The notes: generated from the sequence alone by a model not told the origin. A DNA stretch of 64,000 nt from Chloroflexota bacterium (GCA_042408535.1 JBHORA010000039.1:3419-67418); one strand, 5' to 3'. Numbered from the stretch's first letter, positions 2,711 to 64,000 are shown. Numbers and translations are program-made.

Positions 2711-3796
2711 CTAGCCCCTGGCGTACGCCCTGACCATCGCGACGAGGGCGGCGGGGGCCGTCGCGGGCCCAACCCGCAGGCGAGGCACCAGCAGGCGGTT
2801 CGTGGACGACTCGGTCGCCCCCGGAACCGTCGTCGCCGCGAGCCAGTATCCGAGGCGCTGGAGGATGGCGAGGACCGTAGGACTCCAATTACCGAAGGGA
2901 TAGGCGAGCGTGACGGGCGCGACACCCGTCCAGGCGGCGATCATCCGTCCCGCTCGCGCGATCTCCGCGGCCGCCATCGTCGGCGAAATCGTCCCGAGCC
3001 CCACGTGATGCACGGTGTGGTTGGCGATCTCGTCGCCGGCCTGGGTCATGGCACACAGTTCGTCTGGCGTGAAGTACGGTGCTCTGCCGACCCGACCGGT
3101 GATGACGAAGAACGTCCCCGCGAACCCATAGCGTTCCAAGACGGGGAAAGCGTAGCGGTAGCCGTCACGGTAGCCGTCATCGAAGGTGACGACGAAGGTT
3201 CGCGCCGGCTCCGTCCGCCCGGCGGCCAGGTCGGCCGCGAGCTGGCGGAACGTGATCGCGTGCCACCCAGCAGCATGGAGGGCGGCCATCTGAGCTGCAA
3301 AAAGCTGCGGGGACACGATCAGGCTCCGCAACGAGTCGCCCGCCTCCGAAAGGGGCACGACGCGGTGGTACATGAGGACCGGTACGTGCTCGACGATGCC
3401 TGGGCTGCGCCAGGCGACCGTGGGGGACGCGGTCCCCGACGGGGGAGCACAACTGGGAGCCGGGACCGTGCCGGCGGCGCCTGATCCGGTCGTAGTTGCT
3501 CCACTGCCTGAGTGGTCGATGGGGCCAGGCTGCAGCCGGGACTGGGTCTCTGACGGTGCGGGGGAGGCCGGCATCGAGGCCGGCTGCGCCCCAGGGTGCC
3601 CGGCCGGTGACATGAGGATCGCCGCCGCGATGACGAACGCCAGGCTGGCGATGACGGCAGCGAGACCGCGCTGGCCGAGAGGACTCCCGAATCGGGTGGT
3701 TCGCCGCCGGGCAGGCCTCGGCCCGCTCCCGCCCGCGGCCTCATCGATCTCCACCAGCCCCTCGGGGCGCAACTTCCTCAGTACGAGCCGGACCAT
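2711..3796 (-). CDS. membrane-anchored polysaccharide deacetylase (NodB/CE4 domain)
   Basis: N-terminal TM (LAAVIASLAFVIAAAIL), then VPVLMYHRV, FVVTFDDGYRD and IANHTVHH motifs. Confidence 0.85.
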   Translation of the reverse strand: MVRLVLRKLRPEGLVEIDEAAGGSGPRPARRRTTRFGSPLGQRGLAAVIASLAFVIAAAILMSPAGHPGAQPASMPASPAPSETQSRLQPGPIDHSGSGATTTGSGAAGTVPAPSCAPPSGTASPTVAWRSPGIVEHVPVLMYHRVVPLSEAGDSLRSLIVSPQLFAAQMAALHAAGWHAITFRQLAADLAAGRTEPARTFVVTFDDGYRDGYRYAFPVLERYGFAGTFFVITGRVGRAPYFTPDELCAMTQAGDEIANHTVHHVGLGTISPTMAAAEIARAGRMIAAWTGVAPVTLAYPFGNWSPTVLAILQRLGYWLAATTVPGATESSTNRLLVPRLRVGPATAPAALVAMVRAYARG

Positions 3797-4525: not shown

Positions 4526-4994
4526 CGGATATCTCGGCCTCCCGCTCTTGGGCTCGTGGCGTAGCCCGAGTCGTAAGGATACACCCCCCTCGCCTGGCAC
4601 CACTGCCGCGTTGTAGGGTTGTCCGTGGCGAACCTCGCCTCGATCGAGACAGCGCGCCCGGGCCGGAATGTGCCAACCTCGTTCCCGAACAACCGGAACA
4701 CCAGCACGCTCGCCACGAGGACGAGCTCCGGCGGGCCCAGGCGACCGCGGCCGGCTTCGCGCGCCTCGAGGCCCTCGGACCGCTCATCGTGGAGGCGAAG
4801 CTCTCGGAGGATCCGCTCGCCGGACCGCCGCTCGCCCTGTCGCTCGAACCTGGGCGGGCGGAGCTCGAAGGCGAACGAGCCGAGGTCATGCACCAGCTCC
4901 CCGACGGCCGACGATCGCGCCTGGCCCGCGCGGACACGCCGGAGGCGCGCAAGACACGACGCCAGCGTGCGGCAGAGGGGACGATCCGGTGCAT

Positions 4995-5010
4995 TGGTCG
5001 GGGCGAGCGG
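4995..5010. repeat. third, imperfect copy of the tRNA-Pro 3'-end repeat
   Basis: tggtcggggcgagcgg versus tggtcggggcgagagg at the tRNA: 13 contiguous identical nt and 15 of 16 overall. Confidence 0.45.
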
Positions 5011-5083
5011 AGACAAGCCGCCAGAACCCGACCTCTCTGTCCCGGTGGGGTGGCCTCTGCGATGCGAAGCGACCGGGCAGGCG

Positions 5084-5494
5084 CTACGCCGTCGCGAGCA
5101 CCTCGACCGGGACCGCGACGGCTGGCCAGCCGGCGTCGGTGGTGAGGATGCGGTCCGCGCCGAGGACGAGCGCCGTGGCGATCACCAGGCCATCGGGCAA
5201 CCGCAGCGCGGTCCCGTGGGTCGCCCGCAGCGCGGCCGCGGCGGCGGCGATCGACCGATCGGCCGGCTCCACCCGCGCTGGCACCGCATCGAGGAACCGG
5301 TCCACGACGGCGACGGCGTCGGGACCGCGCCGGTGCGGCGAGACGAGGCACTCCGCGTACGCCGAGGCCGGCAGCACGAGGAGATCGCCGCGATCCCGGG
5401 CGATGCGGACAGACGCGACCGCGGCCGCGTGGTGTGCGTCGGCGGCGTCGAGCAGGGCGATGACCACGCCCGCGTCGAGCACGGTCAGTCCCAC
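5084..5494 (-). CDS. vapC: PIN-domain toxin (VapC-like)
   Basis: MGLTVLDAGVVIALLD...LLVLPASAYAE...LVIATALVLGADRILTTD, the typical PIN acidic pattern. It overlaps the upstream antitoxin by 10 nt. Confidence 0.85.
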   Translation of the reverse strand: MGLTVLDAGVVIALLDAADAHHAAAVASVRIARDRGDLLVLPASAYAECLVSPHRRGPDAVAVVDRFLDAVPARVEPADRSIAAAAAALRATHGTALRLPDGLVIATALVLGADRILTTDAGWPAVAVPVEVLATA

Positions 5495-5733
5495 TCGCGC
5501 CGGAGCTCGTCGAGCTCGCCTGGGGTGTAGACCCCGGTGAGGGCGCCCGCGTACTCCGCCACCGGGTCGGTGTCACGAACGAGGAGCACCTCGCCCGGCC
5601 CCCGCACCTCGGCGCGCAGCCTGTCCCCCGTCCGGATCCCGGCGCGTTGGAGCGCCTCGACCGGGAGGGTCACCTGGTGCTTCGCGCTGACGCGTGTGTA
5701 GCCCCGTCGCCTGTGCTTGACTCGCCCTGCCAT
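5485..5733 (-). CDS. vapB: AbrB/SpoVT-fold antitoxin (VapB-like)
   Basis: MAGRVKHRRRGYTRVSAKHQVTLPVEALQRAGIRTGDRLRAEV...; small, and overlaps the PIN gene. Confidence 0.85.
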   Translation of the reverse strand: MAGRVKHRRRGYTRVSAKHQVTLPVEALQRAGIRTGDRLRAEVRGPGEVLLVRDTDPVAEYAGALTGVYTPGELDELRREWD

Positions 5734-5795
5734 GAGTAAAGAATAAGTGCTCGAGGCCGGGACGGCAAGCGTTCAGGCCCACTTCATCGCGGTCG

Positions 5796-6032
5796 TCAGC
5801 CACCGCGGCGAGTGTTCCGAAGGTCGTCGACATCGGCGATTCGATATGGGATTCTCATGGCGGTTGGTAGCACGCCCTGCGTGACCTCGATGGCTCCCGA
5901 GACCGCCAGCCCCGCGAGCAGCACCAGCGACGCGGACGCGCGACGAGCGACTACTGGTAGCAGTAGTCCGAGCGGAATGAAGGCCAGGAGATTGCCAGCC
6001 ATGACCCTCGCAACAGGCCAGGCCAAGCCCAT
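5796..6032 (-). CDS. VanZ-like membrane protein, short (possibly truncated)
   Basis: GNLLAFIPLGLLLP...AIEVTQGVLP...R..DVDDLRNT matches the C-terminal half of VanZ-like proteins, but it is only 78 aa. Confidence 0.5.
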   Translation of the reverse strand: MGLAWPVARVMAGNLLAFIPLGLLLPVVARRASASLVLLAGLAVSGAIEVTQGVLPTAMRIPYRIADVDDLRNTRRGG

Positions 6033-6250
6033 CCCCAGACTGTCGCCTATGGTTCGGAAGGGAACGATGTTGACTGGGCTGAAGGTGTCAGGCCGACCGC
6101 CCGGGTCTCGGCCACGAGCGGATGCCCGTCGAACGACGTGGCGGCGCCGCGCGCCGCGGCGCCACGAGCCGATGTATCCATGCCCGAGGCAGCTACGTCA
6201 ACGAGGTGAAGGACCGGAGCGCGGTCCAGGAACTGACAGGAGCACCTCCG

Positions 6251-6469
6251 ATGAAGCTCAGCCGCAACGAAAGCACCACCGACCGGGTCGTCCGGCTCAT
6301 CCTCGCCGTCGCCCTCGGGGCGGCGGTCGTCCTCGGTCTCGTCGCCGAGCCGTGGTCATACGTCGTCGGGATCGTGGCGATCGTCCTCGCCTTCACCGCG
6401 ATCAGCGGCTTCTGCGCGATCTACGCCCTGTTCGGGCTCTCGACGAAGTCGAAGTCGCCGCAGCACTGA
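6251..6469 (+). CDS. DUF2892 / YgaP-like small membrane protein
   Basis: MKLSRNESTTDRVVRLILAVALGAAVV...AISGFCAIYALFG; AGGAG lies upstream of ATG 6251. Confidence 0.7.
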   Translation: MKLSRNESTTDRVVRLILAVALGAAVVLGLVAEPWSYVVGIVAIVLAFTAISGFCAIYALFGLSTKSKSPQH

Positions 6470-6481
6470 GCCACAACGCTG

Positions 6482-7288
6482 ATGGGGACAAGCGGGGACG
6501 AGGGCGAGCAGTTCGCCGCCGCACTGGCGGCCGAGCTGCCCCGCCTTGTCCACCTCGCCGCCCGCCTCGTCCGCGACCCGGACGCGGCCGAGGACTGCGC
6601 CCAGGAGACGATCATCGGGGCCTGGCGCCGGCGGGACCAGCTGCGTGATCGGGCCGCCCTCACCCCCTGGCTCCGGCGGAGCCTGGTCAACCGGATCATC
6701 GACCGCTCGCGCGTCCATCACGACGAGCTCGACATCGACGCGGTCGAGGCCGACTGGCGCGACGACCGCTACTCGGTCGAGCCCGAGCAGGTCCTCGAAC
6801 GGGCCGAGGTGCGCGACGAGCTCGAGGACGCCCTGATTCGGCTGCCGGTGATCTACCGGGTCCCGGTCATCCTCCACGATGTCCTCGGCTGGACCGCAGC
6901 CGAGATCGCACGGGCGATGGGGGCCGGCCTGCCAGCCACGAAACAGCGACTCCGACGTGGGAGGATGATGCTCGTGAGTGCCCTCGCCGAGGACGATGCC
7001 CGCCGCCAGGCGAGCCTGACCCAGCCGCTCCGCTGCTGGCGGGCGCGACGCCACATCTCCGCCTACCTCGACGGCGAGCTCGATCCGGCGACCCGGGCCG
7101 CGGTCGAGGGGCACCTCGAGACCTGCCCGACCTGCCCGCCCCTCTACGCCAGCCTGGTCGGGGTGCGGGCGAGCCTGGGCGGCTTGCGCGACCCCGACAC
7201 GGTCGTCGAGGACGCGATCGCGGCCCGCATCCGCGAGCGGCTGGGCGCGGAGCGGGCGCGACCGGGGAGCGACGGCGGGCCCCGATGA
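6482..7288 (+). CDS. ECF sigma-70 factor fused to a C-terminal zf-HC2 (ZAS-type anti-sigma) domain
   Basis: Region 2 (AEDCAQETIIGAWRR) and region 4 (GWTAAEIARAMGAGLPATKQRLRRGR), followed by CWRARRHISAYLDGELD...HLETCPTCPP (H-x3-C-x2-C). Confidence 0.85.
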   Translation: MGTSGDEGEQFAAALAAELPRLVHLAARLVRDPDAAEDCAQETIIGAWRRRDQLRDRAALTPWLRRSLVNRIIDRSRVHHDELDIDAVEADWRDDRYSVEPEQVLERAEVRDELEDALIRLPVIYRVPVILHDVLGWTAAEIARAMGAGLPATKQRLRRGRMMLVSALAEDDARRQASLTQPLRCWRARRHISAYLDGELDPATRAAVEGHLETCPTCPPLYASLVGVRASLGGLRDPDTVVEDAIAARIRERLGAERARPGSDGGPR

Positions 7289-7710
7289 GTGAGCCCGGAC
7301 CGGGCCGACTCGGCGGGACGGACGAGGGGGCCCGCCAGGCCGAGCGAGCCGAGCGACGCAGTCGCTTGGACGCCCGCCACGCCGCCGCCGAGCCGATCGA
7401 ATCGGGCGCGCCGAACCCGGTCCTGATCGAGGAGACGGAGCGCCTTCGAACAGCGTCCGGTCCTCGACGATCCCGGCGGTGTTGAGGGCGAAGGCCTCGA
7501 GGTACCGTCGAACTGCTCCTGCAGAGCGGATTCCCGAAGCCCGCCCTGTTCCTGGCCGCGGCCTCGCGTCGTGGCTGGCTCGAGAGCTACGTCGAGCATT
7601 TGCTCACGCGCGACGCCGACCAGGTCGACCGCGTCCGGGACCCGATCCGCACGGCGGTCTGGGACCTTGCGGAGCCATGCTGTGCGGAGATGAGCAGTCC
7701 GAGGGCCTGA
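7285..7710 (+). pseudogene. remnant of an AAA+ ATPase with DUF4143 domain
   Basis: NPVLIEETERL (resembles vlIDEvQr.Pel), an in-frame stop at 7483-7485, then LLLQSGFPKPAL...WLESYVEHLLTRDADQVDRVRDP (GGFPE...Yv..ll.RDv signature). No P-loop, and a large internal segment is missing. Confidence 0.45.
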
Positions 7711-8128
7711 CAGTCGCCCAGTCCCTCCCTCGACGGAGCCGAGCGGGAAGGAACTGGGCTTGACGAGCCAGAGGATCAGCATCCGAGAAGGGTGACAGCG
7801 AGCCAGAGCGCGGCAACGGACCCGCCAAGGCGGTGCCTCGTCACCTGGGCACGCATGTTGTTCTGCCTCGCCTCGGTCCGAGGGTGTGAAGAGCAGCTCG
7901 ACGGTGACGCCGGCCTTGAGTTGCTCGGCGGACGAGTAGCCATCGAAGCTTGGGTCGGCGTCGAGCATCGCCGTGAACATCTTCGCCCCGGCGAGCATAC
8001 CGGCAGTCATCGCTCTCACGTTGGGGTCCCTGATGTATGCCGCGGCATCTGCGTCGCCGTTTGCCGCCCAGTGTCGGCAGCAGCCACCGCTGGGTACTCT
8101 GCCATGATCTGGTCGGCTGGTCGCTAGG

Positions 8129-8605
8129 CTAGGGGCAGGCGGCTGGGGGCGGGGGTGGGCTGCGCACGCCCACGTCAGGACCAGAAGCGATTCTGATCCC
8201 GAGCCAGTAGATCGGCACGGTCGAGATGAGTCGATCTCCGTCACGGAAGACGAGCATCTCCGAGTAGTATCGCCGGTTGCGCCCGTCGCGGCCGCATAGC
8301 TCGAGGACGCGTCCGCCGACGATCCACGAGCCGTCTGGCAAGCTACTCGGGGCGATCACTCTCGTGCCGATGACGGTCGGGCCGGTCCGGGGAACGGCTG
8401 CCGGATCAGCCTCCCGAAGGGTCTGCTGGCATGTCCCGCTGCCGAGCTGGCACAGCGCCGTGAGGTCGCCCGAGGTGACGATGCTGACCACCGTGCGGAG
8501 ATACCCCTCCGCTTCCTCCTCGGAAGGCGGCGGTTGCGGCGTGTATGAGGCGCCGGCGCAGCCGGCTAGGACCAGCGCGAGGACAGCGAAGGCGCGCACT
8601 CGCAT
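8129..8605 (-). CDS. lipoprotein, unknown function
   Basis: MRVRAFAVLALVLAGCAGAS lipobox; 158 aa of normal composition. Confidence 0.7.
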   Translation of the reverse strand: MRVRAFAVLALVLAGCAGASYTPQPPPSEEEAEGYLRTVVSIVTSGDLTALCQLGSGTCQQTLREADPAAVPRTGPTVIGTRVIAPSSLPDGSWIVGGRVLELCGRDGRNRRYYSEMLVFRDGDRLISTVPIYWLGIRIASGPDVGVRSPPPPPAACP

Positions 8606-8610
8606 CGGTG

Positions 8611-8907
8611 CTACTGAGCGAGGAAGCCGGCCGAGAGCGTCCATCTCGGGAGGCCACCATTCGGTACGCTGATGGCTTGCATGTAGTCGATCTCGCGGGT
8701 GTTCGGGTAGGGCTGGCCGAAGGGCCAGATGCACCCGCAACTCCACTCCTCCTTGAAGTGGCCGGCGGCGGTGTACTTGTAGATGTACCAGTGTTCGCAC
8801 ATGAGGCCGGAGGCGCCGATGGTCACTCCGAGGGCCGACACCTGCAGCGGGATGATCGCGCAGGACCCGCTCAGGCTGCCGCGGGGGCTCCAGTCGATCC
8901 AACGCAT
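8611..8907 (-). CDS. Cys/Trp-rich hypothetical protein (frame stays open upstream to about 9040; start uncertain)
   Basis: MRWIDWSPRGSLSGSCAIIPLQ...MCEHWYIYKYTAAGHFKEEWSCGCIWPFGQPYPNTREIDYMQ. Visibly lower GC than the surroundings. Ends 5 nt before the lipoprotein gene. Confidence 0.4.
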   Translation of the reverse strand: MRWIDWSPRGSLSGSCAIIPLQVSALGVTIGASGLMCEHWYIYKYTAAGHFKEEWSCGCIWPFGQPYPNTREIDYMQAISVPNGGLPRWTLSAGFLAQ

Positions 8908-9043
8908 TGGAGCGCTGCCGGACGCCTGCTGGGCCTCGAGAAACCCGCTGTAGATCTTGCCGAACGGCGCTGCCCCGAGAGTGCCGTATTGCTCGAGTTG
9001 GTAGAAGTCCCGAGGATCCGTTTCCCCGGCCAACCCGTGCTGC

Positions 9044-9358
9044 AGAGGACGACGTCGAACGATCAGTGCGTCCCAGATCCGAGATCTGCCATTCGCGACT
9101 GCCGGCGATCGCGGACGCAACGAGTGAGGCATCGGTCGCCACGACCGGCAAGAGCGACAGTTGTCGGACCATCGCCTCGGCATCGCTCACCGGCACAGGT
9201 ACGGCAAGCTTGCGGGTGACAACGGCGTAGAACTCGGTCAGGACCTGACCTGCGTGGAAACCACGACGTCGTGCCCTGAGGCCGGCGCGACTGGCCCGGC
9301 GCCGCGCGAACTCGGGCGGCGCGTAGGAAACCCGCTGGCGGATGGGTCCTCAGCGCGG
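9044..9358 (-). pseudogene. frameshifted, 5'-truncated PIN-domain toxin remnant
   Basis: One frame gives GQVLTEFYAVVTRKLAVPVPVSDAEAMVRQLSLLPVVATDASLVASAIAGSREWQIS. The next frame continues RIWDALIV...LQHG, the PIN C-terminal signature. Confidence 0.5.
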
Positions 9359-9361
9359 GCG

Positions 9362-10372
9362 TCAGCCGCTCGGCAGCGGTGAGGGCACCGAGATGACATC
9401 TGCCTCGAGCGGCATCCCATCTACGTAGTCGACGTAGACCACAGCCCTTTGAGCCTTCGAGGGACACGCGTCGGTGCCTGAGGGGCTGGCGGTGCCGGAT
9501 TCCGTGGATGAGGTAGCGAACGTTACCGCCCAGACCCATCGATCGGCTTCCACATCACCATCCGCCACCACCAAGTCGCCAAACGCGCCGGCGGTCGTCG
9601 TGAGCAACTGCCAAAAATAGCATTGGGGAAGGAGGGTGCGCGCTGCTGCGACGGCGTCCGTAGCGGCGACGCTGGAGCTCGGGTGCGCCGGCTCGACGTA
9701 GGTGGCCGATTCAAGCGGACCGATCCAGATGATGGCCTCGACAACCGGCAGGGTCTCGCACGCCTGCTTATCGCAGGCCGGATCGCGGGTGTGAACGCTG
9801 AGGACAATGCCTTTCGCCGACCCAGCGGGCGGGAGGCTCACCGGTCCGACCTGATCTATCCCGTACAGGAACATCGCGCGCCCCCCGCTTCGCGCGCCAT
9901 AGAGTGGCAACGCATGGCACGGCTGCCACTCGTCTGCCCCAACCGGGCATGACATCGGGGCGGCCGCGTGCAACCATCCTCCCACCAGCAGCTGGATGCC
10001 CTCGCCTGATCGCGCGATGAGCGCCTCTGCCTCATCCGGGGTCAGGACCCTCTGACCCTGGATCGAGCCGGGCACTCGGCCAGGATTCGTGCCGGACACG
10101 GTGGGCGAACTGGGCTCTATGGGCGTCGCGGTCGGCCCGCCGCCCGCGCCGTTGGGCACTAGGTAACCGAGCCTCGGTGCAACGAGCACGACAAGGCCGA
10201 TGACCACCGCGACGGCGACGATCGAACCGGCGGAGACGCCGAGCTGGATCCGCGGCCCGGCCTTAAGGGGTGAGAGCGCGAGGTCATCTCGCGCCCGGGC
10301 GACCTCTTCGTCGTAGAGGCGCGCGAGTGCGCCCTCGAGAAGGTCGTCGTCTCGATTACGTGTTCCGGTCAC
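9362..10372 (-). CDS. single-pass membrane protein, putative anti-sigma partner
   Basis: Overlaps the upstream ECF sigma gene by 17 nt. It has a cytoplasmic N-terminus, a TM (SIVAVAVVIGLVVLV) and a Cys-containing extracytoplasmic domain. Confidence 0.7.
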   Translation of the reverse strand: MTGTRNRDDDLLEGALARLYDEEVARARDDLALSPLKAGPRIQLGVSAGSIVAVAVVIGLVVLVAPRLGYLVPNGAGGGPTATPIEPSSPTVSGTNPGRVPGSIQGQRVLTPDEAEALIARSGEGIQLLVGGWLHAAAPMSCPVGADEWQPCHALPLYGARSGGRAMFLYGIDQVGPVSLPPAGSAKGIVLSVHTRDPACDKQACETLPVVEAIIWIGPLESATYVEPAHPSSSVAATDAVAAARTLLPQCYFWQLLTTTAGAFGDLVVADGDVEADRWVWAVTFATSSTESGTASPSGTDACPSKAQRAVVYVDYVDGMPLEADVISVPSPLPSG

Positions 10373-56953: not shown

Positions 56954-58876
56954 CTACACGAGCTCGATGAGGAGCGGGCGGAGCCGGCCCCAGGCGTTCC
57001 AGGCCTCGGCCAGCTCGTCGGCTCTGTCGCCGAGGAGCTCGACGAGCTCGCTCAGGGTGAGGCCGCCCGCTTCGCGGGCAAGGAACTCGTCGGCGGTGAT
57101 GGTCACTCGGGAGAAGAGGGCTCCGAGTTCGGCTTCCGTCGGCCAGGCTCGAATCCGCATCGGATCGAGTCCGGCATAGCCGACCGCGAGGGAGAGATCC
57201 CGCTGGCTCGGAACGCGACCGTCGACGAAGCCGCCGAGACCGTCGAAGCGGTAGCCGAGGGAGGCGAGGGCGGCGGCGATGTCGCGGCACTCGGCGGGCG
57301 TGAAGCGCCCCCAGAAGGGATCGTCCTCGGGGAAGGTGAGGGCGTTCGCCTCGATGGCCCGGGCGATGATGGCATCGACGAGGTCGGCGAGGAGGAGGCG
57401 CCAACGGCGGGCCGCCTCGGCGTCGGGGCCGGCGAGGCGTGCGACGAGGCGCTCGAGCACGGTGTGGTCCCCCCGGAGGAGGCGGACGATCGCCGCCTCT
57501 CGGTCCCCCTCCACGCCGACTGCCGCCGCGTCGTCCTCGAAGGCGGGGACCGGTGCCGGTGGCAGTCCCGGAGCCTCGGGGGCGAGCGGCGGTCCACTCG
57601 GAAGGGCTGGCTGTTCGGTCTCCTCGTTCGCCGCACCGTGGCTGGCCCGTTCGAGGGCGGCGGCCGTCTCTTCGCACTCGGCGAGCGTTTGCCGGGCGGC
57701 GAGGCAGGCTTCCTCCGCCGCCTCGGCCTGGATCCGGGCCGCGTCGGCCTCGGTCGTCAGGCGCTCGATCTCGGGGCCGAGGGCGGCGACGGCGGCCGCG
57801 AGACGGGCCGCCTCGCGACTCGCGGCCGCGGCCTCGCGGTTGATCCGGTTGATCTCGTCGAGCCAGGCACGGGCCGCAGCTTCGGCTTCGGCTCGGCTTC
57901 GAGCCGAGGCCCTCGCCACCCGGAAGGCGTCCCGGGCGGCCTCCTTCGCCCCCCGGACGGCGACAGGATTCGCTCGGGCAGCCGCCGCCTCTGCCTTCGC
58001 CGCCGCATCGTCGTAGGCTCGGCGGGCAGTTCGGACCCGCTCGGCCGCGGCAGTGGCCGCCGCCCTGGCCCTGGCGGCAACCTCGCACCGCTCCTGGGCG
58101 AGGAGGCGGGGGCCGGCGCACGGATCGAGCCCGGTGGTCTCGTCGAGGGGTGGCGAGACGCTCCCGGAGGCGTCGTCAGCGGCGGCCTGGTCGGGACCTC
58201 CCGCCGGCAACGGGCCGCCGTGAGGGATCGCGGCAGGCCCCGAGACCTCGGGGCCTCCGTGCCGGACCTGGTCGGGCGCGACGGCTCCGGCCGTGCGGCG
58301 GGGCGAACCCTCGGTCCGGGCCGTGACCTTCGCGAGCTCGGGTTCCGAGGGCCCTCTCGGTCGGTCGCCGCCAGCCTCGCTGCTCGGGGGCCGAGCCGAC
58401 GCGTCGCTTCGTGGGCCGACGAGATCGGCGAGGAGCGGATCAGGGCCGCCGTCGACGGGGATCGGCACCCAGGCTGTCTCGGAGGGACTGATGCGAACGG
58501 TCGTTCTGTCCGAGGGCCCAGAACCGGGCCTCGACCGGGTCGCGCCAGCCGCCGCCGCTCCGGCGCGACCGTTGCCGCCAGAGGTGGACCGGACGCCGCG
58601 GCCCGCCCCGGGGCGGGCGGCAGAGGGGAACCGAGACTCCGCCTCGGCACCGAGCTCGGCGGGATCGGCCGGACCGCCCCGAGCGGGCAGGACGTCGGCG
58701 GGGTCGAGGTACGTGGCGAGCGTGGCCGGGCGACCCGAGACGGGCGCCGGGGCGACGGTGACGCGGATCTCTCGAGGCGGGCGGCCGCGGGCGCGGGAGA
58801 CGGCCGCAGCCGCGGCGCCGCCCGTGGCGCCGAGGAGGAGGCCGAAGGCTAGGAACGCGATCTCGCTCTCGGTCAC
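56954..58876 (-). CDS. TM-anchored protein: disordered region, Ala-rich coiled coil, conserved C-terminal domain; function unknown
   Basis: GTG (rc 58874-58876) with GAGGA upstream. IAFLAFGLLLGATGG TM; AARARAAATAAAERVRTARRAYDDAAAKAEAAAA...; C-terminus FPEDDPFWGRFTPAECRDIAAALASLGYRFDGLGGF.. Confidence 0.65.
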   Translation of the reverse strand: MTESEIAFLAFGLLLGATGGAAAAAVSRARGRPPREIRVTVAPAPVSGRPATLATYLDPADVLPARGGPADPAELGAEAESRFPSAARPGAGRGVRSTSGGNGRAGAAAAGATRSRPGSGPSDRTTVRISPSETAWVPIPVDGGPDPLLADLVGPRSDASARPPSSEAGGDRPRGPSEPELAKVTARTEGSPRRTAGAVAPDQVRHGGPEVSGPAAIPHGGPLPAGGPDQAAADDASGSVSPPLDETTGLDPCAGPRLLAQERCEVAARARAAATAAAERVRTARRAYDDAAAKAEAAAARANPVAVRGAKEAARDAFRVARASARSRAEAEAAARAWLDEINRINREAAAASREAARLAAAVAALGPEIERLTTEADAARIQAEAAEEACLAARQTLAECEETAAALERASHGAANEETEQPALPSGPPLAPEAPGLPPAPVPAFEDDAAAVGVEGDREAAIVRLLRGDHTVLERLVARLAGPDAEAARRWRLLLADLVDAIIARAIEANALTFPEDDPFWGRFTPAECRDIAAALASLGYRFDGLGGFVDGRVPSQRDLSLAVGYAGLDPMRIRAWPTEAELGALFSRVTITADEFLAREAGGLTLSELVELLGDRADELAEAWNAWGRLRPLLIELV

Positions 58877-59007
58877 ACCGTCCTCTGCTCGCTGCGGCGA
58901 CGGGGATCGCCGCTGCGGAGCGTAGCTGCACGCCAGCCGGGCGTCAAATCGAGTCGGGACGCTGGCCGGCTTCCTATGAGCCGCAGCCCCTCGCTTGCCG
59001 ACAGCCC

Positions 59008-59263
59008 TCGTCGCCGTCCTCGACCGGTGGCCATCGCCGTCCTCGACCGGTGGCCATCGCCGTCCTCGACCGGTGGCCATCGCCGGCCCGGGGAGGCCAT
59101 CGCCGACTCGGGGAGGCCATCGCCGGCCCGGGGAGGCCATCGCCGACTCGGGGAGGCCATCGCCGGCCCGGGGAGGCCATCGCCGGCCCGGGGAGGCCAT
59201 CGCCGTCGTCGACCGCCGGCCATCGCCGGCTCGGGGAGGCCATCGCCGGGCCTGGCGTCGGCA
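59008..59263. repeat. tandem array of about 12 units of 23 bp (ccatcgccgtcctcgaccggtgg) and 20 bp (ccatcgccgRcYcggggagg)
   Basis: 'ccat' recurs at 59031, 54, 77, 97, 117, 137, 157, 177, 197, 220 and 240. The array lies in the divergent intergenic region. Confidence 0.9.
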
Positions 59264-59395
59264 ACCAACCGCTCGCAGGCCCGTTTTGCGCCGATCGGCG
59301 GGCCGATGGTAGATTCCCTTCCGCGTTCCCGCGCGGCCCCCCGCCGCTCTCTCCACGCCCCCGAGCCCGGTACAGAGGAAGGGACTGACCGAGTC

Positions 59396-61228
59396 GTGGC
59401 CATCGAGCCGCAGGAGTTTCTCGTCCAACCCGTGGACGCCTCCTGGCTCCAGTGCAACATCGAGTGCCAGGAAGGCTGCCCGGTGGGGACGAACTGCCGG
59501 GGCTACCTGAACCTCGCCGCCGAAGGGCGGTTCGAGGAGGGCTACATCCTGTCCCGCGAGCCGAACCCCGTCGCGGCGATGTGCGCCTACGTCTGCTCGG
59601 CACCCTGCGAGCGGGCCTGCCGGCGGGGCGACATCGACCGGCCCCTCGCCATCCGGGCCATGAAGCGCTTCCTCGTCGAGTGGCACGCCGCCTCGGGGAT
59701 CCCCGACGTCATGCCCGACATCACGCCCCGCCCCGAACGGGTCGCCGTCATCGGCGCCGGCCCGGCCGGTCTCTCGGTCGCCCGCGAGCTCGCCGTCAAG
59801 GGCTACCAGGTGACCGTCTACGACGCCCTCCCGTACGGCGGCGGGACGATGCTCATCGGCGTGCCCGCCTTCCGCTTGCCGCGCGAGGCGATCGAGATGG
59901 ACGTCCGCCTCGTCGAGCGGCTCGGAGTCCGCTTCGTCTACAACACGACCGTCGGCGTCGACGTCGCCTTCGAGGACCTCCAGGCCGAGTACGATGCCAT
60001 CGCCATCTGCGCCGGGGCGATGAACCCCGTCGTCCTCGACGTGCCGGGGGCCGACCTCGAGGGGGTCGAGTACGGCGTCGACTTCATGCGGAAGGCGAAC
60101 CTCGGCGAGCCCCTCAGCGTCGGTCGCGACGTCGTCGTCATCGGTGGCGGCTACACGGCGATGGACTGCTCGCGGACGAGCCTCCGCTACGGTGCCGAGC
60201 GGGTCTCCATCGTCTACCGCCGGACCCGCTCGGAGCTCGTCGTCGACGAGGAAGAGCTCGGCGAGACCGAGCGCGAGGGGGTCCGCATGGAGTTCCTCGC
60301 CAGCCCCCTCGAGATCATCGGCGAGAACGGGCGGGTCAAGGCGGTCCGCTTTATCCGGAACAGGCTCGGCGAACCCGATGCCTCGGGCCGCCGCTCCCCG
60401 ATCCCGATCCCGGGCTCCGAGTTCGTCATCCCGGCCGACACCGTCATTCCAGCCGTTGGTCAGGCAGCCGACCTCTCCTTCTTGCCGGCCGAGACGAACT
60501 TCGAGATCGGCCGCGGCCGGATCCGGGTCGACCCGGCCACGTACGCCACGAACGTCCGTGGCGTCTTCGCCTGCGGCGACTTCGTGACCGGCCCGACGAC
60601 GCTCATCGAGGCTGCCGGCCACGGCAAGAAGTGCGCCTACGCCATCGACCGCTACCTCTCCGGCCGAACGGAGGTGACGGTCACTCCGGAGGTGAAGATC
60701 ACGAGCTCGTGGCGCCACGAGATGCCCGAGTTCTACGACGTCCTGCCTCGCCAGCACGTCCCGATGGCCCCCCTCGCCGAGCGGTTCCCGTCGGCCGAGC
60801 CGGCGGTGAACTTCACGACCCCGGTCGAGCTCGGCTACACGACGACGCAGGCCGTCGCCGAGGCGACTCGCTGCCTCATGTGCAACTACAACATCTGGTT
60901 CGACCCCTTCCGGTGCGTCCTCTGCGGGGCCTGTGCCGACGTCTGCCCCGAGGGCGTCATCCACATGGTCGACATCAACCAGCTCAAGAGCGAGGGCTAC
61001 CTGCCCGAGCTCGAGGAGGCCTACGGCTGGGAGAACGGGGCAGCCATGGTTCTCGACGAGGAGCGCTGCATCCGCTGCGCCCTCTGCGTGAAGCGCTGCC
61101 CCTTCGACGCCATTACCATGGAGCGGTTCGAGCTCCAAGAAGTTTCAAGCGACGGCCGACTCTACAAGGAGTCGTACCGTGACGGTCAGCTTGCCGGTCT
61201 CGCCGGCGTGGCAGGAGGAGCGCGGTGA
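59396..61228 (+). CDS. GltD-like NAD(P)H-dependent Fe-S flavoprotein fused to a C-terminal 2x[4Fe-4S] ferredoxin domain (start could be ATG 59306)
   Basis: [28 protein letters not shown]; [14 protein letters not shown]; [12 protein letters not shown]; GVFACGD; [12 protein letters not shown] and [12 protein letters not shown]. Confidence 0.85.
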
Positions 61229-61953
61229 GTTTCCTCGAGCGGGTGGATCAGACCATTCGCCGGAGCGCCGTCTGGCGCTCGTTGTTCCGCCAGCCGTACC
61301 CGAACGACGAGCGGTCGCGGGCCTACGCGGTGATGAACAACGTCTTCCTCCACATCCACCCGGTCCGCGTCCGCCAGCACGCCGTGAAGTTCGCCTACAC
61401 CTTCTGCCTCGGTGGGCTGAGCTTCTTCCTCTTCCTCGTCCTGACCGTGACGGGCGTCTACCTCATGTTCTATTACGTCCCCTCGGCGACGCAGGCGTAC
61501 TCGAACATCCTCGCCATCCAGAGCGAAGTGACCTTCGGGCTCCTGACCCGGAACATCCACCGCTGGGGCGCCCACCTCATGGTCTTCTTCGTCTTCCTTC
61601 ACATGATGCGGGTCTTCTACCATGGCGCCTACAAGCCGCCCCGCGAGTTCAACTGGGTCGTCGGGGTCGTCCTCCTCTTCCTGACGATCATGCTCAGCTT
61701 CACCGGCTACCTCCTGCCGTGGGACCAGATCGCCTACTGGGCGATCACGATCGGGACGAACATGGGCGGCTACGCACCGCTCTTCAACACGCCGGCCAAG
61801 CTCATCCTCCTCGGCGGCATCGAGGTCGGGCAGAACACGCTCCTCCGCTTCTACGTCCTCCACATCATGGTCTTCCCGCTCCTGGCGGCGATCTTCCTGG
61901 CCGTCCACTTCTGGCGGATCCGGAAGGATGGCGGGATCTCCGGCCCGCTATGA
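61225..61953 (+). CDS. cytochrome b6-type subunit (N-terminal cytochrome b domain)
   Basis: GTGA overlap with the upstream stop, preceded by GGAGGAG. ..[56 protein letters not shown].. Confidence 0.9.
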
Positions 61954-62047
61954 GCCACCGAAGCGGAGCGCAGCCGCAGCCTCGCCGCCGAAGCCGATGA
62001 CGAAGAGCGATCGAGCACCGAACCGATGATCCAGGTGAGCGCCCACC

Positions 62048-62650
62048 ATGGCTGAAACGTCTACCCCGCCCGAGCGCCGGGTCGTCCTGCCCGTCGATCC
62101 GACCCGTCGGACCGAGATCGACAAGCAGCGGGTCCCCATGTCGGCCCGCCCCTACCGCCTCCTTGCCCTCGTCAAGCAGGATGCCGTCGTCCGGGTCCAG
62201 AAGGAGCCCGACGACACGGTCATGACATGGCCGCACCTCCTGGCGATCGAGTTCCTGGCGGCGGCGATGATGAGCATCTTCCTCCTCCTCATGGGCCTCT
62301 TCGTGAACGCCCCGCTCGAGGAGCTCGCCAACGGGAACGTCACCCCGGCCGTCGCCAAGGCACCCTGGTACTTCCTCGGTCTCCAGGAGCTCCTCGCCTA
62401 CTTCCACCCGACCGTCGCTGGCGTCCTCGTCCCGACCTTTGTCCTCGTCGGGGCGGCGGTCATCCCGTACGTCGATCGGGGCAACCCGACGGCGACCCGG
62501 CCGTCGGAGCGCAAGACGGCGGTCGTCCTCTTCAGCCTCTTCTGCATCCTCGGCCTCGTCTTGACCTTCGTCGGCATCTTCTTCCGGGGCCCTGGTTACG
62601 GGTTCGCCATCCCGTACGTGAACACCCCCGGCCTCCATTTCGCTCTCTGA
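62048..62650 (+). CDS. cytochrome b C-terminal domain / subunit IV-like protein
   Basis: TWPHLLAIEF...AKAPWYFLGLQELL (PEWYF-type motif), plus 3 TM helices. Confidence 0.85.
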   Translation: MAETSTPPERRVVLPVDPTRRTEIDKQRVPMSARPYRLLALVKQDAVVRVQKEPDDTVMTWPHLLAIEFLAAAMMSIFLLLMGLFVNAPLEELANGNVTPAVAKAPWYFLGLQELLAYFHPTVAGVLVPTFVLVGAAVIPYVDRGNPTATRPSERKTAVVLFSLFCILGLVLTFVGIFFRGPGYGFAIPYVNTPGLHFAL

Positions 62651-62681
62651 GCGCGATCCGATCCGAGCACCGACCGAACTG

Positions 62682-63359
62682 ATGAGCAACTACCACGTCG
62701 AGCCAGCCCACCGCCCGCAGGCGTTGAGCACCCAAGCCCTCAAGGCCCTCCGGCGAGAGCCCGTCGAGGGCATGTCCCGCCGCCAGCTCCTCCGGCTCTC
62801 CCTCGGGGCGGGCATGCTCCTCTGGCTGACCGAGGTGACGGCCGGCACGATCGGCTTCATCTGGCCGGCCCTCCGGAGCGGCTTCGGGGCGAAGATCCGG
62901 ATCGGGACCTTCGACGACGTCAAGCTCGCCAACGCGAACCTGCCCATCGCCGACGGCTTCCCAGCCTACTTCTCCGAGGCGCGCGCCTTCGTCGTCCTCG
63001 TCGATCCCTCGCGTCAGGAGTTTTTGCCCGGCGAGGACCGGACCGGCGATGGGACGGCGCTCAACGTGCGAGCCCTCTATCAGCGCTGCCCGCACCTCGG
63101 CTGCAAGCCGAACCCGTGCCTGAAGAACTTCTGGCTCGAGTGCCCCTGCCACGGCTCCCGGTACGACCGCCTCGGGATCAAGGCGGCGGGCGCCCAGTAC
63201 GGGCCGGCACCGCGGAGCATGGACCGCTTCGCCATCGAGGTCGACCAATCCGGGGTCCTCACCATCGACACGTCGAGGATCACCCTCGGCCCGCTGCCGA
63301 TCGCCGTCGGCCAGCCGGGCATCATCCCGCCGAAGTCGCCGACGGGCTGCATCGACTGA
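62682..63359 (+). CDS. Rieske 2Fe-2S protein
   Basis: Tat-like SRRQLLRLSLGAG, CPHLGC ... CPCHGS. Confidence 0.9.
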   Translation: MSNYHVEPAHRPQALSTQALKALRREPVEGMSRRQLLRLSLGAGMLLWLTEVTAGTIGFIWPALRSGFGAKIRIGTFDDVKLANANLPIADGFPAYFSEARAFVVLVDPSRQEFLPGEDRTGDGTALNVRALYQRCPHLGCKPNPCLKNFWLECPCHGSRYDRLGIKAAGAQYGPAPRSMDRFAIEVDQSGVLTIDTSRITLGPLPIAVGQPGIIPPKSPTGCID

Positions 63360-63390
63360 GCCAGCGACGAGATCCGACGCGAGGAGACCA

Positions 63391-64000
63391 GTGACCGACC
63401 AGCCTGACCGCGGGCCGGCGTCGCGCCTGCCCGTCCCTCGGCCGCCAGGAGCGGCGGCCTCGCCGGAACGCTTCGCCGCCCCGCCATCCGCCCGCCGCTT
63501 CGGCCTGACCCCGGAACGGGCGGCCCAGATCGTCCGTCAGTCCTCGAGCGCTCGCTTCGTCGGCTTCCTCGCTGTCGGGGTCGTCGTCCTCTTCGTCATC
63601 GTCTACTACTTCTACGAGCTCGGCTTTCCGGGCGGCCTCATCGAGAGCCGGCTGGCGGCCGAGACCGAGGCCCAGCAGGTGACGGCCGTCGAGCGGGGCT
63701 ACAACATCTACGAGGCGAACTGCGCTCGCTGCCATGGGGCGAACGGGGAGGGCGGCATCGGCCCGAAGCTGAACGACCAGAGCAAGCTCTTCTGGCACCT
63801 CCGCCCGGACTACCTCCGAAACGTCCTCGAGGTCGGCGGTCGGTACGTCTGTGGCGACCCGAACAGCCTCATGCCAATCTGGTCCGACCGGAACGGAGGC
63901 CCCCTCAACTACAAGGCGATCGAAGATCTCATCGCCTTCCTCCGGGCGACGAACGAGCGCCAGTACACGGTCCGGGACCCCGAGCTCTTCGAGCCGGTCA
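63391..64000 (+). CDS. membrane-anchored c-type cytochrome (partial, continues past the window)
   Basis: GAGGAG before GTG 63391. TM FVGFLAVGVVVLFVIVYYF; heme site CARCHG. The frame is open to position 64000. Confidence 0.8.
   Translation, partial: MTDQPDRGPASRLPVPRPPGAAASPERFAAPPSARRFGLTPERAAQIVRQSSSARFVGFLAVGVVVLFVIVYYFYELGFPGGLIESRLAAETEAQQVTAVERGYNIYEANCARCHGANGEGGIGPKLNDQSKLFWHLRPDYLRNVLEVGGRYVCGDPNSLMPIWSDRNGGPLNYKAIEDLIAFLRATNERQYTVRDPELFEPV

Follow-up and report, generated by a model that had tools for sequence, protein, structure and literature searches.

This locus raises the question of what a gene for an NADP(H)-binding flavoprotein is doing at the head of a respiratory cytochrome b6 operon, and in which direction electrons would pass between the two. 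The operon lies at the end of a 64,000-nucleotide stretch of DNA (the window), which corresponds to positions 3419–67418 of a 67.7-kb contig. The contig belongs to a metagenome-assembled genome (MAG) of 2.9 Mb in 222 contigs, 92% complete and 5.8% contaminated, whose host is a Limnocylindria (Chloroflexota) bacterium. Five plus-strand genes run from 59396 to the window end and encode, in this order, the flavoprotein, cytochrome b6, subunit IV, a Rieske protein and a cytochrome c. Judging from their sequences, they would make up a b6-type complex of the APWY clade, in which the coupled first gene encodes an NfnB/GltD-type protein with flavin adenine dinucleotide (FAD), NADP(H) and about four [4Fe-4S] sites. 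Most likely, NADP(H) is connected through the flavoprotein to the low-potential haem chain of this complex. The features on which the argument rests are these:

59375..59383, plus strand: Shine-Dalgarno-like sequence GAGGAAGGG, 12 nt before the GTG of the flavoprotein gene (read in the sequence)
59396..61228, plus strand, GTG to TGA: NfnB/GltD-like NADP(H)-FAD flavoprotein, 610 amino acids (aa) (Pfam, NCBIfam, PDB, AF2, Foldseek)
61225..61228, plus strand: GTGA stop/start overlap (cgGTGAgt) of the flavoprotein and b6 genes (read in the sequence)
61225..61953, plus strand: cytochrome b6, 242 aa (Pfam Cytochrome_B, E 1.8e-46)
62048..62650, plus strand: subunit IV, 200 aa (Pfam Cytochrom_B_C, E 2.8e-7; alignment; hydropathy)
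62682..63359, plus strand: Rieske [2Fe-2S] protein, 225 aa (Pfam, E 1.4e-7)
63391..64000, plus strand, continuing past the window and off the contig: monohaem, membrane-anchored cytochrome c (Pfam, E 6.4e-10)

The first-pass annotation, made from the sequence of the window, had described a flavoprotein with two dinucleotide-binding motifs, N-terminal Fe-S cysteines and a C-terminal 2 x [4Fe-4S] domain, ending in a GTGA that overlaps the b6 start and followed by subunit IV, a Rieske protein and a c-type cytochrome. All of these elements were recovered, the flavoprotein features by Pfam and in the sequence, the overlap in the sequence and the three downstream subunits by Pfam matches. The overlap predicts translational coupling of the flavoprotein and b6; the intergenic gaps downstream of b6 are 94, 31 and 31 nt. 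Because the contig ends 296 bp beyond the window, inside the cytochrome c gene, that gene is cut. The Pfam E-values and the synteny found in 80 related genomes are far beyond chance.

The flavoprotein matches Fer4_20 at residues 18–100 (E 6.5e-17; N-terminal, 2 x [4Fe-4S]), Pyr_redox_2 at residues 115–410 (E 1.7e-34) and Fer4/Fer4_7 at residues 506–574 (E 2e-12 / 5.7e-11), the last being the C-terminal 2 x [4Fe-4S] ferredoxin domain. The two dinucleotide motifs read GAGPAGL and GGGYTAMD, and there are 8 N-terminal and 10 C-terminal cysteines, including two CxxCxxCxxxCP motifs; 14 of the cysteines are invariant in an alignment of 25 homologues. The protein has no transmembrane (TM) segment (hydropathy maximum 1.47), and its AlphaFold2 (AF2) model (pLDDT 83.3, pTM 0.83) has disordered ends at residues 1–12 and 584–610. 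Sequence matches in the PDB include NfnB (4ylf_B, E 6.7e-93) and the large subunits of NfnABC/StnABC (E 1e-98 to 4e-113), of which 9bov_A, 8oh5_C and 9n5u_A align from end to end of the 610 aa, with the ferredoxin part at the C-terminus included. Foldseek superposed the model on NfnI and NfnB with root-mean-square deviations (rmsd) of 1.8–3.1 Å over about 430 columns at 38–40% identity (for NfnI 5jca_L, 1.9 Å over 430 columns and 40% identity). The closest solved relatives are therefore the NADPH-binding, FAD-bearing subunits of Nfn-type enzymes, and with its Fer4_20 domain, its FAD and NADPH Rossmann domains and its NfnB-like fold the protein belongs to the NfnB/GltD family. Separately, the genome of the window holds a paralogue (contig C86, 14577–17098, plus strand, running off the contig end; 41% identical) that carries in addition a fused [2Fe-2S] domain at its N-terminus and more Fe-S motifs; its gene is found 2–3 kb downstream of nuoH, and the protein is similar to the large subunits of NfnABC/StnABC-type enzymes.

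The closest solved structures, those of the bifurcating subunits of NfnI, NfnABC and StnABC, and the presence of two separate Fe-S domains, one at each terminus, would suit an enzyme in which the FAD itself bifurcates as in NfnB. NADPH electrons would then be split between the haem chain/quinone and a low-potential ferredoxin reached via a second Fe-S arm, joining flavin-based and quinone-based bifurcation in one machine. We regard this as very improbable. An NfnA partner ([2Fe-2S] + FAD) is encoded neither in the operon nor at the 80 related loci, the operon has no ferredoxin gene, and published models of the anammox homologues string the four clusters along one wire that leads from the haem to the FAD (PMC12954380).

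Cytochrome b6 carries the four haem-ligand histidines in conserved HRW..AH and LH..VH pairs (haems bL and bH), and the CxGG that includes the haem cn/ci cysteine (FCLGG, residues 60–64) is invariant in 17 homologues. It is about 50% identical to solved or canonical b6 proteins but can be aligned with them only from residue 59, the first 58 residues occurring only in the flavoprotein-linked family. Within this extension lies His43 (LHIHP), shared by all 17 sequences of an alignment with anammox, Chloroflexia and delta-proteobacterial homologues, as is the motif RxRKDGGIS. The same number and position are held by His43 of Kuste4571, a subunit of one of the two Kuenenia stuttgartiensis complexes (Kuste4569–4574 and Kustd1480–1485) treated by Hauser et al. 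2025, in whose AlphaFold3 models this residue ligates an extra haem b at the dimer axis, facing the flavoprotein (PMC12954380). In the neighbouring Kuste4570, the position of Arg511 falls inside the first CxxCxxCxxxCP of the flavoprotein, so the C-terminal ferredoxin domain would be the face turned towards cytochrome b. A general role for Arg511 as a haem-contact residue was rejected, as it is not conserved: arginine occurs only in anammox bacteria, and the window has Ala512.

Subunit IV contains the Qo motif KAPWYF (APWY type), invariant in the family, and keeps the Glu aligned with the putative haem cn ligand of Kuenenia. It has 3 TM helices, like its delta-proteobacterial homologues; the anammox, Armatimonadota and Chloroflexia proteins have a C-terminal extension that adds 2. 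Against NCBIfam NF040969 (cytb_ExtP, the b-type cytochrome of a selenite/tellurite reduction operon), b6 reaches 297 bits, slightly above the equivalog cut-off of 290, and automatic annotation may therefore mis-name it. An ExtP/ExtQ identity, as in the Geobacter ext operon, was rejected, since subunit IV fails the ExtQ model (53.5 against a cut-off of 150) and the context is a respiratory operon.

A twin-arginine motif (SRRQLL) is present in the Rieske protein, whose cluster boxes read CPHLGC and CPCHGSRY; the second of these keeps both Ser and Tyr. These two box II residues raise the potential of the cluster, a determinant discussed for Kuste4569, and the two Kuenenia Rieske proteins were measured at +303 (Kuste4569) and +335 mV (PMC12954380). 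They are also the top PDB matches of the protein in the window (9rk4_A, E 2.8e-11; 9rk3_A, E 7.2e-10; next match 2e-6). The cytochrome c has one TM segment, a single CxxCH positioned at residue 111 and then a Pro/Ala/Ser linker; in full-length orthologues a cupredoxin domain forms the C-terminus (at locus L009, 346 aa with Cytochrom_C and Cupredoxin_1, E 1.7e-9). The histidine pairs, the CxGG, the separate subunit IV and the Rieske boxes are thus all those of a b6-type Rieske/cytochrome b complex.

In order to establish how closely the flavoprotein is tied to this complex, we surveyed related genomes. A scan with one genome per species returned at least 571 loci, of which the best 80 were examined, all from Limnocylindrales-type MAGs with 85–98% identity. 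The flavoprotein gene adjoined b6 in 80 of 80, and at none did a different neighbour stand beside it; the junction was a 4-nt overlap in 74/77 cases and a 0-nt gap in 3/77. The five-gene order was complete at 61 of the 80 loci, the other 19 being cut by contig ends after the last gene seen. Presence and absence were scored across 201 sampled genomes of the class with an orthologue cut-off of at least 81% identity. Orthologues of the flavoprotein were found in 48 of the 61 genomes of the window's family and also in 7 genomes of a sister family (1.0–1.4 Mb), and all 13 same-family genomes without the flavoprotein had no orthologous b6 either. COX1 (haem-copper oxidase) was missing too in 11 of these 13. 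Co-occurrence in related genomes was one of the points on which the first-pass annotation had staked its reading, and within Limnocylindrales the two genes are always jointly present or jointly absent. It had also presented the module as an unusual respiratory device; with at least 571 genome loci it is ordinary inside this order. As a separate observation, the genomes of genus g5 of the window's family (G014, G017, G020, G026, G032, G077, G086, G122 and G146; 91–95% complete) have neither flavoprotein, orthologous cytochrome b nor COX1 and keep NuoH, and this gene content looks like that of a lineage in which aerobic respiration was lost.

When 1.8 billion representative proteins were searched, flavoprotein identity was seen to fall sharply beyond the class, from at least 80% in Limnocylindrales to 50% and then to 36–45% for hundreds of full-length proteins. 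Chloroflexia MAGs, reached via a 42% representative (P0125) and including 'Chloroflexi bacterium 54-19' and a Ca. Chlorohelix MAG, have the same five-gene order at 12 of 14 loci, with a flavoprotein about 41% and a b6 about 58% identical. Anammox loci (Kuenenia, Brocadia, Scalindua, Jettenia and others), retrieved with a Kuenenia Rieske fragment taken from the PDB alignment, show the Kuste4569–4572 arrangement of Rieske, flavoprotein, b6 and subunit IV. Identity to the window is 40% for the flavoprotein (residues 5–581), 49% for b6 (1–242), 47% for subunit IV and 42% for the cluster-binding part of the Rieske protein (residues 126–198). The order in an Armatimonadota MAG is flavoprotein, Rieske, b6, subunit IV, and Deltaproteobacteria/Thermodesulfobacteriota MAGs have exactly the order of the window. 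The likeness to the anammox module that the first-pass annotation had drawn is therefore borne out, whereas its statement that such modules were known only from anammox planctomycetes does not hold, as they also occur in Chloroflexia, Thermodesulfobacteriota/Deltaproteobacteria, Armatimonadota and further lineages, a spread beyond anammox bacteria that was already published (PMC5600118, PMC4122944). The gene neighbourhoods indicate that the linkage of flavoprotein and b6 is widespread and old.

Two side observations concern these more distant loci. Several from Brocadiales/Planctomycetota (L121, L150, L154, L161, L164–L166, L168, L170 and L172) have Rieske, b6 and subunit IV genes, with no flavoprotein detected nearby by tblastn; they may be Kustd1480-type clusters with a different or more distant oxidoreductase gene. 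The flavoprotein representative P0168 (611 aa), at locus L187 (1389–6836), begins at the base after the stop codon of a 1203-aa pyruvate:ferredoxin oxidoreductase (PFOR) gene, an arrangement that suggests an NADPH-linked PFOR.

The context of six further flavoprotein representatives was looked up, and 3 were linked to Rieske or cytochrome b genes and 3 were not. Among the linked ones, P0128 has an overlapping cytochrome b gene and multihaem cytochromes, P0157 stands in the order flavoprotein, FixS, Rieske, and P0132 in the order NNT-type cytochrome, flavoprotein, Rieske, fused cytochrome b. A neighbourhood survey and a phylogeny had been proposed as checks in the first-pass annotation; adjacency was conserved, as described above, but in a quick tree of 106 sequences, with context known for few representatives, the b6-linked flavoproteins were scattered, implying 8–9 changes. 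This scatter, the absence of a TM segment and the existence of close relatives that have no b6 neighbour or are coupled to PFOR would be expected if the flavoprotein were co-transcribed with the complex without being a stable subunit, acting instead as a soluble NADPH:acceptor (ferredoxin-like) oxidoreductase in assembly, redox poising, regulation or an unrelated reaction. We think this improbable given that, across Limnocylindrales, the two genes are strictly adjacent, overlap at stop and start and are present or absent together, and that the linkage is retained at 37–43% identity in four phyla despite shuffling of the gene order. Furthermore, only the linked family has the N-terminal extension of b6 that contains His43, and the homologous Kuenenia subunits were expressed and co-migrated as complexes, according to the account of de Almeida et al. 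2016 given in PMC5600118 and PMC12954380.

The role of the complex as a whole was approached through the other respiratory genes of its hosts. The MAG of the window encodes several COX1, one NuoH and PntB. On contig C170 (about 4600–9900, minus strand) it also has a long QcrB-type cytochrome b with a PDWY motif beside COX1, as does G134; this actinobacterial-style bc-aa3 cluster could be native or stem from the 5.8% contamination, which may also have brought foreign genes into the rest of this inventory. Cleaner relatives were therefore considered, namely five streamlined genomes (1.0–1.4 Mb) and the near-closed G038 and G152 (3.1 Mb). All 7 have exactly one cytochrome b, adjoining the flavoprotein gene, and exactly one COX1, and NuoH is present in each; an NrfD-type protein, the marker for alternative complex III, was not found in 6 of the 7, G038 being the exception. 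COX2 contains a CuA-type motif both in G152 (CAEFCGTFHSTM, 11 kb from the b6 operon) and in G011 (CSAFCGLLHHQM, with CSAFC instead of CxExC), and the oxidase would therefore be fed by cytochrome c or a cupredoxin and not by quinol. A quinol oxidase that would make the b6 complex dispensable was accordingly rejected for these two genomes. Substitution of the flavoprotein for complex I in the streamlined genomes was also rejected, NuoH being present in 10 of 10 genomes checked. Because the sole cytochrome b stands beside one CuA-type oxidase, and because the flavoprotein and b6 are absent together, we infer that the b6 complex acts as the aerobic complex III, a quinol:cytochrome c/cupredoxin oxidoreductase. 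Reverse operation has been suggested for APWY complexes by Kao & Hunte (PMC4122944), but it would fit poorly here, where the complex appears to be the only link between quinol and the CuA oxidase.

The reading that we adopt, tentatively and with somewhat less than even confidence, is that the scheme of Kartal and Hauser operates in an aerobe, with the flavoprotein branch running mainly towards NADP+ and respiration driving NADPH formation via quinone-based bifurcation. Menaquinol (the quinone type is assumed) would be oxidised at the Qo site and its two electrons split. One would follow the high-potential branch through the Rieske protein, the anchored cytochrome c and its fused cupredoxin to the CuA of the oxidase, while the second would cross the membrane via haems bL and bH/cn. 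From there it could leave by either of two low-potential exits: reduction of quinone at the n-side site, as in the ordinary Q cycle, or a possible His43-held haem, the C-terminal ferredoxin domain, the Fe-S wire, FAD and finally NADP+. From knowledge of the family, the flavoprotein would sit on the cytoplasmic face with its ferredoxin domain towards haem cn/bH, and the four [4Fe-4S] clusters would connect to the FAD, which would exchange hydride with NADP(H). The high-potential branch would thereby pay for carrying the second electron over the membrane and as far as NADP+, and how electrons divide between the two exits would depend on the NADPH/NADP+ ratio and on the membrane potential. On indirect grounds, we favour the NADP+ direction because the Rieske protein has its Ser and Tyr, because the relatives are Nfn-type and NADPH-binding, and because His43 is invariant. 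With menaquinone at about -70 mV and NAD(P) at -320 mV (both quoted in PMC12954380), and with the acceptor taken to be near +300 mV, a rough estimate gives about 0.75 eV available for each electron pair against a need of about 0.5 eV plus electrical work against the membrane potential, which would make the reaction feasible but near equilibrium.

The relatives of the flavoprotein can also be taken to point the other way, as GltD, DPD and NfnB usually accept hydride from NADPH. Electrons would then pass from NADPH through FAD, the Fe-S wire and haem cn/bH to menaquinone at the n-side, giving an NADPH-specific dehydrogenase entry beside complex I, much as ferredoxin/FNR feeds b6f in cyclic flow. 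The conserved haem cn and its putative Glu ligand agree with such a route, which would be strongly downhill, and Dibrova et al. see short cytochromes b as dehydrogenase anchors (PMC5600118); moreover, the module also occurs in anaerobic Thermodesulfobacteriota, in which a high-potential acceptor is not obvious. Nevertheless, we consider NADPH input rather unlikely, as about 250 mV would be wasted uncoupled (the argument of PMC12954380), PntB and complex I already give a coupled route, and both the tie to a high-potential-type Rieske protein and the joint loss with the oxidase would be left unexplained.

Several points weigh against NADP+ reduction as well. At full membrane potential the NADP+-reducing route would, by our own estimate, be near equilibrium, and the quinone type and all redox potentials that enter the estimate are assumed. 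Since haem cn and the Glu are kept, the n-side quinone site may take all low-potential electrons, and since the genome has PntB and complex I, another source of NADPH exists. The Arg511 of Kuste4570 is replaced by Ala in the window, and co-transcription of the operon is a prediction. Finally, the flavoprotein family is not restricted to b6 complexes, because P0124 (a 50% relative from other families of the same class) and P0126 stand alone and P0168 is coupled to PFOR with no b6 link. The stronger claim that the sole complex III of Limnocylindrales is an oxygen-driven, quinone-based bifurcating NADP+ reductase, which for each menaquinol passes one electron to the oxidase branch and the other to NADPH, is a possibility that we hold to be doubtful.

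To our knowledge, NAD(P)H formation by bifurcation at the Qo site has been proposed for flavoprotein-bearing Rieske/cytochrome b complexes since 2013, and no enzyme has been assayed. Anammox bacteria, which grow slowly and have three complexes each, are the only organisms studied for such complexes. Limnocylindrales, which are abundant aerobic soil and freshwater Chloroflexota and include streamlined genomes of 1.0–1.4 Mb, would depend on the same core machine as their one complex III; the lineage is a very common one, and electrons would leave the complex simply, through a monohaem cytochrome and a cupredoxin. Should half of the quinol electrons indeed go back to NADP+, the textbook accounting of H+/e- would not hold for these bacteria, and reductant for biosynthesis would come straight from respiration, with neither reverse complex I nor transhydrogenase involved. 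Should they not, the function that has been proposed in anammox bacteria would have to be reconsidered. Simpler candidate systems for biochemistry are offered by Chloroflexia, including the Ca. Chlorohelix lineage, and by the delta-proteobacterial carriers. What the operon provides is a simple, widespread case for a bioenergetic mechanism, neither rare nor new in kind.

The surroundings of the operon can be described briefly. The flavoprotein start was placed at 59396 because GAGGAAGGG lies 12 nt upstream and homologues are 610–611 aa long. A longer open reading frame (ORF) starting at 58976 (750 aa) was rejected, since it translates a 20-bp repeat array and its extension occurs in no homologue. 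This tandem array (59008–59263; 59075–59249 by Tandem Repeats Finder, TRF), with consensus GGCCATCGCCGGCCCGGGGA in about 8.6 copies and further degenerate copies upstream, occupies the divergent intergenic region between the operon and a minus-strand gene ending at 58876, and generates a spurious in-frame 140-aa N-terminal extension of the ORF. The divergent gene (56954–58876, minus strand) encodes a 640-aa protein of low complexity with coiled coil and an ordered C-terminal domain, for which no Pfam match was found at E 0.01; a homologue is likewise upstream of the operon at L009 (5082–6851, minus strand), so the neighbourhood is conserved. At L009 (12141–13565, plus strand) and L042 (12044–13564, plus strand), a Kelch-repeat beta-propeller gene directly follows the cytochrome c-cupredoxin gene. 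Its product (about 475 aa; Kelch_1, E 1e-12), with hydrophobic segments at both the N- and C-termini, may be a sixth operon member. A scan of 58500–64000 for promoters and terminators gave no sigma-70-like promoter, such a scan being uninformative in Chloroflexota at 72% GC, and 3 weak terminator-like hairpins, all within the b6 coding region, against 1.5 expected by chance; neither result was used as evidence.

Among known systems, the closest are the Rieske/cytochrome b complexes of anammox bacteria that include an NAD(P) oxidoreductase subunit, reportedly described by Kartal et al. in 2013. The flavoprotein of the window is homologous to theirs and colinear with it, with all Fe-S and nucleotide motifs; b6 shares the CxGG and His43, subunit IV the KAPWYF and the Rieske protein the box II Ser and Tyr, and the genes are adjacent in both. 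However, the flavoprotein gene comes first here and the Rieske gene first in anammox bacteria, subunit IV has 3 TM helices instead of 5, Arg511 is not conserved, and a monohaem cytochrome c-cupredoxin takes the place of hexa/octahaem cytochromes and an HAO-like protein. The hosts also differ: an aerobe in which this would be the main or only complex III, as opposed to anaerobic chemolithoautotrophs in which it is one of three complexes and the flavoprotein-bearing ones stand beside a canonical one.

By motif and context, the operon can further be assigned to the APWY clade and to 'subfamily G', with which it shares the APWY Qo motif, a split cytochrome b, an adjoining large NAD(P)-binding Fe-S protein and overlapping taxa (Chloroflexi, delta-Proteobacteria, Planctomycetes). 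The APWY clade of Kao & Hunte 2014 includes Chloroflexi, with no member characterised (PMC4122944), and Dibrova et al. 2017 noted that large NAD(P)-binding Fe-S proteins accompany the short cytochromes b of subfamily G 'in many other cases' (PMC5600118); the spread of the subfamily was already in Dibrova et al. 2013, as cited there. These papers are sequence surveys that name no Limnocylindria, and a literature search combining Limnocylindria with terms for the module found no paper on the operon.

Unlike in the NfnABC/StnABC and GltD systems, the partner of the flavoprotein would here be a membrane cytochrome b6, and the operon has no NfnA, GltB or HydBC-like partner. With the cyanobacterial/chloroplast b6f and the Firmicute/heliobacterial b6c complexes it has in common a split cytochrome b, haem cn (ci) and a b6 core of about 50% identity from residue 59, but the 58-aa N-terminus with His43 is absent from canonical b6, and PEWY or PDWY is found there instead of APWY. 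As in b6f with FNR, an NADP(H) flavoenzyme would be placed on the n-side, although FNR is bound loosely, has no Fe-S clusters and is not related to the flavoprotein of the window. Taken against these systems, the kind of complex and its spread beyond anammox bacteria were already known; what sets this member apart is its probable role as sole complex III in an aerobe, the 3-helix subunit IV and the monohaem cytochrome c with its cupredoxin.

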